Origin: a virus
Lineage: Duplodnaviria; Caudoviricetes
Virus record (IMG/VR): IMGVR_UViG_3300023108_000002
Direction: 5' to 3' (one strand)
Length of the DNA stretch: 64,000 nucleotides
Shown: positions 20,325-26,256 of the stretch, in pieces
How positions within the stretch are numbered: the first letter of the stretch is position 1
Layout of the letters: every line of letters starts with the position of its first letter
Position numbers and translations under genes: made by a program
The notes under the pieces: generated by a model
Told to the model about the DNA's origin: nothing
Databases searched by the model: none
The model's input: only the letters and a program-made list of their open reading frames with translations

Positions 20325-22039
20325 TGATTGAGTTTAAAACTATTAAATGGAAGAACTTTCTTTCCACTGGTAATTATTTTACAGAAGTGCAACTAAACCG
20401 TTCATCTTCTACTCTTATTGTTGGTGAGAATGGAGCAGGAAAATCTACCATTTTGGATGCATTGACATTTGGTTTGTTTGGAAAATCTTTTAGAAAAATT
20501 AATAAACCACAGCTTATAAACTCTATAAACAATAAAGATGCTTTGATTGAGATTACCTTTAAAATTGGTAAGAATGATTACTTGGTGCGCCGCGGTATCA
20601 AACCCAATATTTTTGAAATATGGGTAAATGGTAAAATGTTAGACCAAGATTCAAAAATTCGTGATAGCCAGATTTATTTGGAAGAAAACATTCTCAAACT
20701 GAATTATAAGTCATTTACTCAAACTGTTATTTTGGGTAGTGCTACTTTTGTTCCTTTCATGCAACTTTCTGCAATCGATAGAAGAGAAATTATTGAAGAT
20801 ATTTTGGATATAAAAATCTTTTCTGCAATGAATGAAATTCTAAAAGCAAAAATGGCTGCATTGAAAGAAACAATGACAGAAAATGAAAAAAACCGTGAAG
20901 TCCAAGATTATAAGATTGAACTTCAAGAAAGAAATATTGAAGATGCAAAGACGACAAAGAAAACTGCGATTAATACTTTTAAGAAAAAGATAAAAGAAAA
21001 GAAGGCTGAACAGAAACAGTGTATTGACAAAAATACAGAATTGCATGAACAAATATCAAATTTATTGGAAAAGATTATACATGAAAGTAAAATATCTGAT
21101 AGAAAGAAAAAACTTGAACGTCTAGAAACTAAACTCTCAAATAATGCAGAAAAAATACAAAACGACATCTCATGGTTTGAAGGCAATGATGTTTGTCCAT
21201 CATGCCAACAAGATATTAATGAAGATCATAAGAATTGTATTGTGGAAGAGAAGGATAAGAAAAAGGAAGAAGTTTTGACAGCTGTTCAATCTTTGTCTGA
21301 TGAATTGATTGAGATTGATTCTGAATTACATTATATTGAAGAAACCAAAACATCTATCACAAATCTTAATAATGTAGTTAGTTCTAATAATGATAAACAT
21401 CAATATCTACAAAAAAATATTGATGAACTTGAGGCTGAAATAGAAGATGCGGAAAATAATAATACAAGCGTTTCTAAATTAGAAAAGGAATTAAAAGAGT
21501 TTAAAAAGATTTCCAAAGAGTTGGACAATGAACGCAAAACTCTTTCCGAAACAAAAAACTATCATGTGGTTGCATCACAGTTTTTGAAGGACACTGGTGT
21601 AAAAACTTCTATTATAAAATACTATTTGCCAATAATGAACAAGTTAGTAAATAAGTATCTACAAGAAATGGATTTCTATATTAACTTCACAATGGATGAA
21701 AAGTTTAATGAGAATATTAAATCCAGAGGCAGAGAAGGATTTACATATAGTTCTTTTAGTGAAGGAGAGAAGATGAGAATTGACCTTGCTCTCTTGTTTA
21801 CTTGGAGAGAGATTGCTCGAATGAAGAACAGTGTCAACACAAATCTTCTGATTCTTGATGAGGTGTTTGATAGTTCTTTGGATGCGACTGGTACAGACGA
21901 GTTTTTGAAGTTGTTGAACACATTAGGCGGCAACAATGTCTTTGTGATTTCACATAAAGGAGATATTCTATATGATAAGTTTCACAGTGTGATTAAATTT
22001 GAAAAAGTAAAAAACTTTAGCCAAATTGAAAAAAATTGA
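20324..22039 (+). CDS. gp46: recombination endonuclease subunit gp46 (Rad50/SbcC-like)
   Basis: GENGAGKST, CPSC zinc hook, FSEGEK signature, LILDEVFDS, ISH. Confidence 0.97.
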   Translation: MIEFKTIKWKNFLSTGNYFTEVQLNRSSSTLIVGENGAGKSTILDALTFGLFGKSFRKINKPQLINSINNKDALIEITFKIGKNDYLVRRGIKPNIFEIWVNGKMLDQDSKIRDSQIYLEENILKLNYKSFTQTVILGSATFVPFMQLSAIDRREIIEDILDIKIFSAMNEILKAKMAALKETMTENEKNREVQDYKIELQERNIEDAKTTKKTAINTFKKKIKEKKAEQKQCIDKNTELHEQISNLLEKIIHESKISDRKKKLERLETKLSNNAEKIQNDISWFEGNDVCPSCQQDINEDHKNCIVEEKDKKKEEVLTAVQSLSDELIEIDSELHYIEETKTSITNLNNVVSSNNDKHQYLQKNIDELEAEIEDAENNNTSVSKLEKELKEFKKISKELDNERKTLSETKNYHVVASQFLKDTGVKTSIIKYYLPIMNKLVNKYLQEMDFYINFTMDEKFNENIKSRGREGFTYSSFSEGEKMRIDLALLFTWREIARMKNSVNTNLLILDEVFDSSLDATGTDEFLKLLNTLGGNNVFVISHKGDILYDKFHSVIKFEKVKNFSQIEKN

Positions 22040-22049
22040 AAAAAAACTA

Positions 22050-22079
22050 TTGACGAACCATGCAGTAATGGTATATACT
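22050..22079 (+). promoter_or_regulatory. sigma70-type early promoter heading the DNA-modification operon
   Basis: TTGACG followed by TGGTATATACT at 16-18 nt spacing; upstream A-tracts. Confidence 0.7.
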
Positions 22080-22121
22080 GAGATAATACGTCACTCAAAC
22101 TACATTAGAGGATTTTTTCAC

Positions 22122-23531
22122 ATGAATGAAGATGAAATAATTAATATTATCACAAATAGTAGTTTTCAAGATTTACAAAAACTTAGGGTGGACTCTGACC
22201 ACATATCACTTATTGAATTACCAGACATTTATGGTGCTCACCTATATTGCACTTTCATAAATTCTGGAGAGACAATGGATAGATATTTTGGGTGGCATAA
22301 AGGTGAGTTTAATGGTACATACTATGGTTCGCCAGTTAAACATTCAAAAAAGTTCTGGTCAGATATGCGAAAGTATCCTAGTTTAACTTTATGTTTTAAT
22401 GTTGGAACTCCAAGAGATATGAATGTGAGGGAGGGTAAAATACTGAAGGCTATCGATGCAAAGTCTAATGAAAAGTTCTTCAATGAGAGCAATGGTGGTG
22501 GTGCATTAACTAAAGGTCAAAAATCAATTACTGCATTAGATAATATTGTTTATAACTTAGAAAAAAATGTATATCCAATTCAAAAAGTAGATAAACATAA
22601 ACTCTATGCTATACAACCACACCAAGTAAGAGAAGTAATGGAAATACCTAATAAGGTGCAATCTATTCTTAATCATATACTAGATACAAAAGGTAGATGG
22701 TTGGATGGAAATTTTCATTACGTTTTAATTCTTAAAGATTTCTATGGTAAAGATAAACATCTTAGGATAGGTAGTTTTCACACACTAAAAGCTTGTATGA
22801 AAACAGATTTTGTTGGTGAATTAGATGCTGTCTTTATACCGAAAAAAGATTGGATTAATTTAGACGAAACTGAAATTAAAGATTTAGGACATACAGATAA
22901 CAAAAGAGATGATAAGGTAAATGATTCTGTAAGTTTATCAGAGGCTATATCAAATGCCGTTTCTTTTATTAGAAATAATAATATTGAAGACCATAAAGAC
23001 CAAAGTGTAAAAGATAAATTCATGCGTTGGGGATTTACTAAAACTGAATGGGAAGCAACTATTAGAAAAACTTTACGAAATACACTAAATGATAGTAAAG
23101 CAAAAAATGCAATACCACCCAATCATATTAAAAAAAGCTGGACTGAAAAAGAAAAGTCTCAGATGATTGAAAGACATACAGACGAGAATACTTTTGTTTT
23201 TATTTTATCCACAGCTTGGTGGTCAAATAGATGGGTAGGTTTTGACGCACTAATGAATATTGTAAAGAATGAGGAAGCATTTAAAAAAGATTATTGGAAA
23301 ATATTCTGGTTAAATGAATCAGACACAGCGTTTTTAGATTGGAATAAGATAAAAACTAAAAAAGATGAAGAAGGTAATGTGGTTTTAAAACCAACAAGAA
23401 AAACTAATATTGAACATGATTTACAAATTTTGTTTTCAAAGTTTGCTGAAGATATTAGACCTATTCTTATTTTTGAAGATTTACCATATTCAGAACCTAA
23501 CGAAATTAAAAATGATAAAAAAGTATCTTGA
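22122..23531 (+). CDS. hypothetical protein: GIY-YIG(Seg)-like N-terminal domain plus ParB/Srx-like central domain
   Basis: LYC...YFGWH...YYGS...REGKIL...KFFNESNGG resembles Seg-type GIY-YIG. QVRE...IGSFHT resembles a ParB-like fold. ATG at 22122 follows GAGG and the promoter; the ORF-finder start at 22026 lies upstream of the promoter. Confidence 0.5.
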   Translation: MNEDEIINIITNSSFQDLQKLRVDSDHISLIELPDIYGAHLYCTFINSGETMDRYFGWHKGEFNGTYYGSPVKHSKKFWSDMRKYPSLTLCFNVGTPRDMNVREGKILKAIDAKSNEKFFNESNGGGALTKGQKSITALDNIVYNLEKNVYPIQKVDKHKLYAIQPHQVREVMEIPNKVQSILNHILDTKGRWLDGNFHYVLILKDFYGKDKHLRIGSFHTLKACMKTDFVGELDAVFIPKKDWINLDETEIKDLGHTDNKRDDKVNDSVSLSEAISNAVSFIRNNNIEDHKDQSVKDKFMRWGFTKTEWEATIRKTLRNTLNDSKAKNAIPPNHIKKSWTEKEKSQMIERHTDENTFVFILSTAWWSNRWVGFDALMNIVKNEEAFKKDYWKIFWLNESDTAFLDWNKIKTKKDEEGNVVLKPTRKTNIEHDLQILFSKFAEDIRPILIFEDLPYSEPNEIKNDKKVS

Positions 23532-24372
23532 AAAACATATTAAAGATAATGTGTTAGATGAAGAAGTTAGTTTACTATTAAGTGGTGGTCTTGATTCTAT
23601 ATCTGTTGGTATTTCTGCTGAACTAGTTGGGAAGAAAGTAAACGCATATAGTTTTTATCTTGAAGGTGTTCCTTCATATGACTTTGCAATGGCTGCTAAT
23701 ATTGCATCACAAAGAGGTTGGAATTTTACTCCAGTAGTTGTTCCTACTACAAATCTTAATGAAGATTGGTTTAGATTAGTTGATTTGGGTTGTAGAAAGA
23801 AAACTCATTTTGAGTGTGTATTTCCTTTCCTATATGTTTATCCAAAAATAAAAGAAAAGTATGTTCTTACTGGTTGGGGGGCGGATGGATACTTTGGACC
23901 AAGTAAAAAAGCTATGATGCGATATTCTAGTTATAGAAATAAAAAAAACTATGTTAAATATTGTAAAGAACACAATCAAAAAAGATTGAACTGGAACGAA
24001 TTCAGACTTGAATATCTTGATGGAGACTGTGCTGGTTACAAAGAACACACAACCCTTGCGGAAAAACATGATAAGATACACATAGCACCATATAAAGATA
24101 GTAAAGATATTAGAAAAGAATTGATGAATAAGAGTTGGACAGAGTTAAATACACCCAGACAAAAAGAAATTATAAGAAAAGACTTTACAATACTAAAAAA
24201 GTATGGTAATATAAAGCCACATATAAATTTACACCTCGGTTCTGGTATAGATAAATTGTTTGAAACTTTTTTGAAAGACTCGACAATTAATTTCAATAAT
24301 AGAAAAAGAATAATGGATGTTTGTAAAGATTGGTATAAAAATCCGAATAGTTTGAGAAGGTATAATATATGA
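23512..24372 (+). CDS. asparagine-synthetase-like (PP-loop) ATP-dependent amide ligase lacking a glutaminase domain; CmoY-like
   Basis: LLLSGGLDS PP-loop and VLTGWGADGYFG (cf. AsnB TGEGADE.FG). 286 aa from ATG 23512, overlapping the previous stop. Confidence 0.75.
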   Translation: MIKKYLEKHIKDNVLDEEVSLLLSGGLDSISVGISAELVGKKVNAYSFYLEGVPSYDFAMAANIASQRGWNFTPVVVPTTNLNEDWFRLVDLGCRKKTHFECVFPFLYVYPKIKEKYVLTGWGADGYFGPSKKAMMRYSSYRNKKNYVKYCKEHNQKRLNWNEFRLEYLDGDCAGYKEHTTLAEKHDKIHIAPYKDSKDIRKELMNKSWTELNTPRQKEIIRKDFTILKKYGNIKPHINLHLGSGIDKLFETFLKDSTINFNNRKRIMDVCKDWYKNPNSLRRYNI

Positions 24373-25565
24373 GTTATACACCATATAATTTACAAGATGT
24401 TTATGATGCATCTGAACAGAACAAATTTAAAGTGATTTCAACTTTTGCCGGTGGTGGTGGATCTTCCACTGGCTATCGTCTTGCTGGTGGTAAGGTTCTT
24501 GCAGTAAATGAGTTTGTAGAAGAGGCATGTAATACCTATAAAGAAAACTATCCAGAGACACCTATTCTGCCTGGCGATATTAAAGAATTGACTGGGCAAC
24601 ATTTCTTGGATGCAGCTGGAGTAAAAGTTGGGGAGATAGATATTCTGGATGGTTCTCCGCCATGTTCTGCGTTTTCTGTGGCAGGCAAACTATCTCATAA
24701 TAGTATTGAAACTGAATACTTAGATTTTGATGGTAATGTTATGACACGCAAAGAAAGTGGTAAACATTCTGATGGATGGGGTCAAACTAAAAAGTATTCT
24801 GATGGAAAGATAGTTGAAAATATTGAAGATTTGTTTTTTGATTTTCTGAGAATTGCTGATGAAATAAAACCAAAAGTAATCATTGCAGAAAATGTTAAGG
24901 GATTGACTGTTGGAGAAGCAAAAAACTATCTTAATCAAATACTCAATAGATTCGAGGAAATTGGATATAATATTTCGTATCAAGTTTTGGATAGTAGATA
25001 TTTTGGAGTTTCGCAGACTCGAACCAGATGTATTTTTATTGGAGTAAGACAGGACATTGCCGATCAAGTTGGCTTGAACTTTATGACAATTCAAAATGTT
25101 TTTCCAACTCCAGATTTGAAAACAATTCCTCTGAAAGATGCTTTGATTGGTTTAGAATATGATGATGAAGAAATTTCTTATCTTACTGAAAAGTTTTCTA
25201 ATACTGCATATTGGAAACAAACTGGTAGTATAATGCCCGTTGATCCAGATAAAGTTCTAACAGGAGGCGATTATCACCCGAAAGGACACCACTTTAACTT
25301 GAAAAGAGTATCACAGTATGCTCCAGCACCGACCTTAACCGCTATGGGGAGTGCTGATACTACTGCTGGTGCATTCCACTGGGCAGAACCTAGAAAGTTG
25401 ACCCTCGGCGAGCTGAAGCGCATTATGTCACTTCCAGATGACTTTAAACTTACTGGAAAATGGAATCAAAAAGCAGAAAGAATTGGAAGGATGGTTCCGC
25501 CACTGATGATGAAAAGAATTGCAGAATCTGTATATAAAAATGTTTTGGAGAAATATAATGGCTGA
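24369..25565 (+). CDS. C5-cytosine DNA methyltransferase-fold enzyme, predicted carboxymethyltransferase (CmoX-like)
   Basis: Motif I FAGGGG, motif IV SPPC (Cys99), motif VI ENV, motif VIII QTRTR. Motif X reads IGRMVPP instead of the canonical IGNAVPP. Confidence 0.85.
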   Translation: MSYTPYNLQDVYDASEQNKFKVISTFAGGGGSSTGYRLAGGKVLAVNEFVEEACNTYKENYPETPILPGDIKELTGQHFLDAAGVKVGEIDILDGSPPCSAFSVAGKLSHNSIETEYLDFDGNVMTRKESGKHSDGWGQTKKYSDGKIVENIEDLFFDFLRIADEIKPKVIIAENVKGLTVGEAKNYLNQILNRFEEIGYNISYQVLDSRYFGVSQTRTRCIFIGVRQDIADQVGLNFMTIQNVFPTPDLKTIPLKDALIGLEYDDEEISYLTEKFSNTAYWKQTGSIMPVDPDKVLTGGDYHPKGHHFNLKRVSQYAPAPTLTAMGSADTTAGAFHWAEPRKLTLGELKRIMSLPDDFKLTGKWNQKAERIGRMVPPLMMKRIAESVYKNVLEKYNG

Positions 25566-26256
25566 TTTCACATTTGCACACCGCGAAGAAGGTTTTGATG
25601 AACATATTGATAAAAGTATTAGAGGTTATGGAGATTTGTTGGATGATGTAATTTCTCTATCAAGATACTTTGTGGAAGATGGTACTAATGTTTATGATAT
25701 TGGATGTTCAACTGGTAAACTGACTCAACGAATGTTGGAGGCAAATCAGGATTTTTGTTATGATGCAAATTATATTGGTATTGAAGTTGCAAATGGATTT
25801 TATGATGATATGATAAAAAGACAGGAGCATATCAGATCAATACACCCTTGGGTCCGTGTTGATTTTAGACATGAAGATGTAAGAGACACTGAATTTGAAA
25901 ATGCCTCTTTAATTACTTCAATATTTACTTTGCAGTTTATGTCAAAAATTGATCGGCGATTTACTATTCAAAGAATTCATGATGGATTGAATGAAGGTGG
26001 CGGTTTTATTTTTGCAGAAAAAACTATTTGTCAAAATGCAAATTTTCAAGACATGCTCACATTTAATTATTATGATTTCAAAAGAAAATCTTTTGATACA
26101 GAAGATATTATGAATAAAGAAAGAACTCTTAGAAACATGTTGAAACCAAACACTTGGCAAGAAATAAATGAAATGATGTGGGACGCAGGTTTTGAAGATG
26201 TCCAACCTTTCTGGAGAAATCATATGTTTGTTGGAGCAATTGCCATAAAAAAATAA
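25558..26256 (+). CDS. cmoA: carboxy-SAM synthase CmoA homolog
   Basis: F.F......FDEHIDKSIRGY, VYDIGCSTG, SIFTLQF, GGGFIFAEK and KERTLRNML follow the CmoA pattern. ATG at 25558 after GGAG. Confidence 0.8.
   Translation: MADFTFAHREEGFDEHIDKSIRGYGDLLDDVISLSRYFVEDGTNVYDIGCSTGKLTQRMLEANQDFCYDANYIGIEVANGFYDDMIKRQEHIRSIHPWVRVDFRHEDVRDTEFENASLITSIFTLQFMSKIDRRFTIQRIHDGLNEGGGFIFAEKTICQNANFQDMLTFNYYDFKRKSFDTEDIMNKERTLRNMLKPNTWQEINEMMWDAGFEDVQPFWRNHMFVGAIAIKK

Follow-up and report, generated by a model that had tools for sequence, protein, structure and literature searches.

The reading frame at positions 24369–25565 of the 64-kb window (the whole stretch of viral DNA analysed here) very probably encodes a CmoX-type DNA cytosine C5-carboxymethyltransferase that acts in a pathway with the products of the adjoining cmoA and cmoY genes, and in which an arginine (Arg374) at the position of the canonical motif X asparagine binds the carboxylate of carboxy-SAM (Cx-SAM). 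For this phage the case is built on sequence, fold, conserved residues and gene linkage; the chemistry and the arginine contact are taken from the orthologues of Synechococcus phage S-B43 (PMC12783734), and we infer that the enzyme is active, that GpC is its target and which amine is attached.

Neither the CmoX family nor its arginine is new: both were described, together with a crystal structure, in a paper of December 2025. In this natural system of DNA carboxymethylation it is the arginine that determines cofactor specificity, and it makes CmoX enzymes recognisable from sequence alone, apart from the 5mC methylases with which annotation pipelines lump them together. To this the window adds a divergent member of the family and an independent replication of the linkage between the arginine and cmoA (164/166 Arg-type loci against 0/84 Asn-type loci). 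What is left of interest is the diversity of the CmoY cassette and an upstream ORF that is swapped along with it. The features discussed below are as follows.

22122–23531, plus strand: ORF without known family at the head of the cluster, in the swapped cassette (ATG at 22122; the longest frame runs from a TTG at 22026)
23512–24372, plus strand: cmoY-like ATP-dependent amide ligase, 286 amino acids (PF00733; 41% identical to SpCmoY)
24369–25565, plus strand: cmoX, DNA cytosine C5-carboxymethyltransferase homologue, 398 amino acids (PF00145, 8YF3 match, AlphaFold2 model)
24654–24665, plus strand: catalytic motif IV, S96-P97-P98-C99, with the nucleophile Cys99 equivalent to SpCmoX Cys98 (alignment)
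24687–24737, plus strand: 17-amino acid insertion, residues 107–123, 3' of the catalytic cysteine (alignment with SpCmoX and S-CRM01 CmoX)
25482–25502, plus strand: motif X, I-G-R-M-V-P-P, with Arg374 at the canonical Asn position (sequence, phmmer, global alignment)
25558–26256, plus strand: cmoA, carboxy-SAM synthase homologue, 232 amino acids (61% identical to SpCmoA)

The reference point for all that follows is the S-B43 system described by Yang et al. (Nat Commun 2025, PMC12783734), whose CmoX survey covered 5,615 sequences, taken from IMG/VR v4 among other databases. In S-B43 the phage CmoA produces Cx-SAM, the carboxymethyl group of which is moved by SpCmoX onto cytosine C5 at GC motifs, and in a ∆cmoA host the product, 5cxmC, is lost. 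CmoY, an asparagine synthetase homologue, then couples glycine to 5cxmC, and the resulting 5gcxmC is the base present in virion DNA. In the 1.9 Å SpCmoX structure, Arg350 stands where HhaI has Asn304 and is in direct contact with the carboxymethyl group of Cx-SAM, an arrangement said by the authors to be 'strikingly mirroring' the engineered M.MpeI N374K; an Arg–carboxylate contact has been proposed for CmoB too. Wild-type SpCmoX uses Cx-SAM only and not SAM, whilst the R350N protein is inactive with both (PMC12783734).

The cmoX reading frame and its motif X arginine

The cmoX product has the fold of a C5-cytosine DNA methyltransferase (Pfam PF00145, E = 4.8e-58; TIGR00675) and carries the FAGGGG, SPPC (with Cys99), ENV and QxRxR motifs of these enzymes. 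SPPC, the catalytic motif that served Yang et al. as their CmoX criterion (PMC12783734), is invariant in our 44-sequence alignment. In motif X, Arg-Met replaces the Asn-Ala/Ser of the canonical G-N-(A/S)-V. Positions 25482–25502 (att gga agg atg gtt ccg cca) read in frame as I372-G373-R374-M375-V376-P377-P378, with the AGG at 25488–25490 encoding Arg374, and the stretch can be recognised as motif X because phmmer pairs its IGRMVP with IGNAVP of HaeIII. The initial annotation had placed an arginine at the motif X asparagine position, and reading frame, HaeIII alignment and 8YF3 alignment all confirm this. Conservation of Arg-Met in 80/80 IMG/VR relatives (75–98% identity) and of Arg in 86 more distant loci excludes chance as its origin.

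The initial annotation had also pointed to an Asn-to-Lys change in M.MpeI (N374K) that yields a carboxymethyltransferase, and this gain of activity is documented (PMC12015181). That the M.MpeI asparagine and the window arginine share the number 374 is a coincidence of numbering. The similarity of M.MpeI to the window protein is low (phmmer E = 3e-8, residues 163–328 only) and does not cover motif X, so that the equivalence to N374 rests on the HaeIII alignment and on two points of Yang et al., their superposition with HhaI N304 and their explicit statement.

Much closer is SpCmoX itself, which is 58% identical over its full length and whose structure, 8YF3 ('DNA cytosine C5-carboxymethyltransferase in complex with Cx-SAM', from Yang et al.), is the best PDB sequence match (E = 9e-141). 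The block ER(I/V)GRMVPPLMMK aligns without gaps between the two proteins, making Arg374 the equivalent of Arg350. Global alignment also shows the Cx-SAM contacts F25, E47, F48 and D69 of SpCmoX to be identical in the window protein (F26, E48, F49 and D70), as are S95-P96-P97-C98 and R350 (S96-P97-P98-C99 and R374). An AlphaFold2 model built from the 44-sequence alignment (mean pLDDT 90.6) finds 8yf3 as its best PDB match (TM 0.96 by target, rmsd 1.9 Å), with HhaI and HaeIII far behind. Alignment and model thus do not place Arg374 away from the cofactor pocket, which is one of the two outcomes that the initial annotation had named as refuting its proposal of a natural carboxylate-binding residue; that proposal is further supported by the contact between the equivalent Arg350 and the carboxymethyl group (PMC12783734).

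The mutant assay that had been suggested alongside, in which R374N would be compared with SAM and Cx-SAM, fares less well as a specificity test: SpCmoX R350N is dead with either cofactor and shows no switch (PMC12783734), and a finding that R374N does not change specificity would therefore not refute the Cx-SAM model. The same result means that the arginine is necessary but that asparagine restores no methyltransferase activity, so other changes in the pocket must contribute. A candidate for one of these is Met375, at a position usually held by Ala or Ser.

Two regions set the window protein apart from SpCmoX. The target recognition domain (TRD) is about 45% identical (47/104 aligned residues) and contains a 6-amino acid insertion, and the 17-amino acid insertion follows the catalytic cysteine. 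The latter is absent from SpCmoX and S-CRM01 CmoX but present in 73/80 close relatives, with a conserved pattern (SHN-x-x-EE-x-x-DL-x-GNV), and is modelled at low confidence as a β-hairpin (pLDDT 52–71). With a TRD this divergent and an insertion beside the catalytic loop, sequence specificity and kinetics could differ from those of SpCmoX.

Neighbouring genes and linkage of the arginine to cmoA

The three genes are tightly packed. The cmoY stop codon overlaps the cmoX start (ATGA) and the cmoA ATG overlaps the 3' end of cmoX by 8 nt, and cmoX is translationally coupled to cmoY upstream and to cmoA downstream. CmoY, whose start at 23512 was placed from the alignment with SpCmoY, comprises an asparagine synthetase PP-loop domain (PF00733) without a glutaminase domain, unlike the GATase-bearing 477-amino acid CmoY of contig L095, and matches SpCmoY over 280 amino acids (E = 1e-72); sequence searches found no relative of it with a solved structure. 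CmoA is 61% identical to SpCmoA, whose activity has been verified biochemically (PMC12783734), and aligns over its full length to E. coli CmoA (4GEK, E = 1.3e-27), although its scores lie below the equivalog cut-off of TIGR00740 (117.9 bits against 193.3) and the cut-off of NF011995 (97 against 285). Within the 64-kb window there is neither a second C5-methyltransferase nor a second CmoA.

By analogy with S-B43, the pathway would run in three steps. CmoA would make carboxy-SAM from SAM and prephenate. CmoX would then use normal C5-methyltransferase chemistry, in which Cys99 attacks C6 and the carboxymethyl group of Cx-SAM is passed to C5, with Arg374, in place of the canonical asparagine, pairing with the Cx-SAM carboxylate; the product would be 5-carboxymethylcytosine, probably at GpC. 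Finally, CmoY would adenylate the carboxyl group and ligate an amine to it (glycine in S-B43). The hypermodified base would be expected to shield the phage DNA from restriction.

The source of the window is an uncultured T4-like (Kyanoviridae-like) myovirus. Among its genes are those for tail sheath, portal, a gp41-like helicase and a gp43-like polymerase, the last being approximately 67% identical at the nucleotide level to polymerase genes of cyanophages. The window has a G+C content of 34%, with a strong excess of A over T and of G over C on the coding (plus) strand. Observed/expected ratios show a deficit of CpG (0.66) and TpA (0.71) but not of GpC, whose ratio of 1.03 is uninformative on CmoX specificity.

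A survey of the co-occurrence of the arginine motif with cmoA had been proposed in the initial annotation, and we carried this out on 250 IMG/VR loci of the CmoX subfamily, namely the 80 closest relatives and 170 further loci. Among the former (75–98% identity), all 80 have G-R-M-V-P and a cmoA gene directly downstream, and in about 55 cmoY also lies upstream; the closest is 98% identical to the window cmoX. The 170 further loci were fetched with Arg-type and Asn-type alignments and searched with a CmoA HMM built from the cmoA neighbours of the closest relatives. Matches were found at 84/86 Arg-type loci, mostly within 0–2 kb, the two exceptions having the methyltransferase gene at or near a contig end, and at 0/84 Asn-type loci (Fisher p = 4e-47, a value that overstates independence, the loci being related). 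Across the whole survey cmoA thus accompanies 164/166 Arg-type and 0/84 Asn-type loci, as had been predicted. Six of the Asn-type loci emerged beside Arg-type ones in a neutral-pattern search, so that the way the search was set up does not by itself account for the contrast.

The association is partly phylogenetic, however, and this bears on how the arginine is to be weighed. It was originally held to support the Cx-SAM model independently of gene neighbourhood: the support stands but the independence does not, since residue and cmoA travel together in evolution.

A wider phmmer search of 1.8 billion cluster representatives returned 906 relatives at E <= 1e-30. In the top 150 of these the motif X residue is Arg in approximately 104 and Asn in approximately 30, with Leu, Asp, Lys, Met, Gln or Tyr occurring occasionally. 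Distant Arg-type members (P0004, P0008, P0010) are accompanied by cmoA, and the CmoY of P0008 bears a GATase domain; Asn-Met types (P0137, P0074) are found in integrase or restriction-modification-like contexts without cmoA. Three members on short contigs (P0098, P0007, P0113) were left out of this comparison of neighbours. Natural residues other than Arg or Asn at the cofactor-facing position are seen in P0078, P0113, P0115, P0132, P0020 and at L084:2567–3694. The lysine of P0078 is a natural counterpart of the engineered N374K, and its 5.2 kb contig contains no detectable cmoA; Asp, Gln and Tyr are found too, and Flavobacterium phage tooticki6-1 has a methionine (IGMSVPP).

Alternative readings and the exchanged upstream cassette

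Given that the 58%-identical SpCmoX, with the same motif, takes Cx-SAM only (PMC12783734), and that cmoA was found at 84/86 further Arg-type loci as against 0/84 Asn-type loci, it is very improbable that the window protein is an ordinary SAM-dependent 5mC methyltransferase in which an arginine is tolerated and beside which cmoA serves some other use, such as tRNA cmo5U modification. In favour of such an enzyme, Pfam and NCBIfam name only a C5 DNA methylase, the motif X position varies within the subfamily (Leu, Met, Asp, Lys, Gln, Tyr) and Leu-type relatives that presumably form 5mC adjoin TET genes; against the tRNA use of cmoA, S-B43, in which the pathway was demonstrated, has no CmoB homologue (PMC12783734). 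Yet another reading, in which cmoX is a decayed or inactive copy whose arginine reflects relaxed constraint, has next to no probability: the 398-amino acid frame is intact, SPPC, ENV and QxRxR are invariant, start and stop codons are coupled with those of both neighbours, the motif is conserved in 80/80 relatives down to 75% identity and the fold is confidently predicted. Conservation effectively refutes it.

A more serious question is whether a CmoX-type carboxymethyltransferase in this phage leads to the same end product as in S-B43. It is possible, if somewhat doubtful, that the target is not plain GpC, that the amine added by CmoY is not glycine, or both, so that the final base is not 5gcxmC. 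The divergent TRD and the clade-specific 17-amino acid insertion point in this direction, as does the low identity of CmoY both to SpCmoY (41%) and to its counterpart in a phage with 99%-identical flanks (44%); moreover, ligase clusters with differing pocket residues have been reported (PMC12783734). On the other hand, the related TET-associated phage C5-methyltransferases prefer GpC as well (Burke et al. 2021, PMC8256090), and members of SpCmoY's sequence similarity network (SSN) cluster, at roughly 30% identity, keep the glycine-carboxylate pocket (PMC12783734), a cluster in which, at 41% identity, the window CmoY would be expected to sit.

The phage with 99%-identical flanks is the nearest record, IMGVR_UViG_3300007236_000007 (L004), and comparison with it reveals an exchange immediately upstream of cmoX. 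The DNA flanking the exchange is 99.0% identical on one side and 98.7% on the other, but between these flanks window positions 22089–24354 and L004:3920–5985 have no detectable DNA similarity. One breakpoint is situated 14 nt upstream of the cmoX ATG, the other approximately 60 nt into the upstream ORF. In the window the cassette consists of an ORF of about 470–500 amino acids, of no known family, and its own CmoY subtype, whereas L004 has an unrelated 410-amino acid ORF and a CmoY 44% identical to that of the window. Both CmoY subtypes recur across the clade, and both are 41–47% identical to SpCmoY. Because CmoY is distant from SpCmoY and differs in subtype from its counterpart in the nearest relative, the identity of the final adduct is uncertain.

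The window ORF (22026–23531, 501 codons; P0003) is absent from L004 and has no match in Pfam, PHROG or NCBIfam. Atlas feature and structure searches gave weak ParB_N-, DndB- and GmrSD_N-like leads that fall below the reliable range; ParBc-domain proteins are frequent on CmoX contigs (PMC12783734). Homologues of 26% identity precede the same CmoY subtype in three further loci (L026, L043, L073). One could picture the cassette as a swappable 'amine-choice' module by which near-identical phages put different amides on the same 5cxmC handle, the final base of the window phage being an undescribed 5cxmC amide and not 5gcxmC, which the co-swapped ORF might supply or recognise; we consider this unlikely, but unexplored chemistry may remain in an amide-ligase module that is exchanged between near-identical phages.

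Comparison with related systems

The window cluster resembles that of S-B43 in its motif X (ER-x-GRMVPPLMMK), its Cx-SAM contact residues, its SPPC motif, its cmoA and cmoY partners and its T4-like, cyanophage-type genome. It differs in gene order (cmoY-cmoX-cmoA, against cmoA-cmoY-cmoX in S-B43 and cmoA-cmoX in S-CRM01), in the two CmoX insertions, in its distant CmoY and in the extra ORF at its head. SpCmoX has been characterised biochemically, whilst the window protein is described here from its sequence and predicted fold. With the engineered M.MpeI N374K and M.MedI N377K the likeness is one of principle, a positively charged motif X side chain pairing with the Cx-SAM carboxylate to give 5cxmC. 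Those enzymes are lysine point mutants of CpG methyltransferases that retain the use of SAM (PMC12015181), whereas the natural enzyme has arginine, uses Cx-SAM only and targets GpC (both as reported for SpCmoX), and comes with its own Cx-SAM synthase. In the bacterial CmoA/CmoB pathway to tRNA cmo5U, a CmoA homologue makes the same cofactor as the window CmoA, but CmoB acts on tRNA ho5U; the acceptor enzyme in the window has a C5 DNA methyltransferase fold and its substrate would be DNA cytosine.

The TET-associated phage C5-methyltransferases, for which a preference for GpC has been reported (PMC8256090), belong to the same subfamily. A representative of this subfamily that sits with TET (P0090, L270:242–6446) is 44% identical to the window CmoX over matched stretches. 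Like the window cmoX, its gene follows a gene for a gp46-like SMC/AAA_23 ATPase and specifies the enzyme that opens a cassette for post-replicative cytosine hypermodification. Its motif X, however, has leucine (ERIGLMVAP) and not arginine, its partners are Tet_JBP and a TET-associated glycosyltransferase and not CmoA and CmoY, and it presumably uses SAM to make 5mC. A single phage methyltransferase scaffold and genomic slot thus appears to serve two routes to cytosine hypermodification, one through 5mC and TET and the other through Cx-SAM and an amide.

Two further contigs show other gene arrangements. A metagenomic contig (L096:481–3614) carries a cmoA gene (37% identical) and a chorismate mutase gene (Pfam CM_2) together with two tandem Arg-type C5-methyltransferase genes. 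Such an enzyme in a phage would provide prephenate, the co-substrate of CmoA; a tblastn search with this chorismate mutase as query found no match within the window, and no paper in the literature searched links CmoA, chorismate mutase and phage. A GATase-bearing, glutamine-dependent type of ligase could not be expressed by Yang et al. (PMC12783734). It is this type that occurs on a phage contig that is not T4-like and has a PolIII-alpha polymerase (L095:8001–11232), where an Arg-Ala CmoX is followed by a 477-amino acid CmoY with GATase and Asn-synthase domains and by a divergent CmoA (28% identical).
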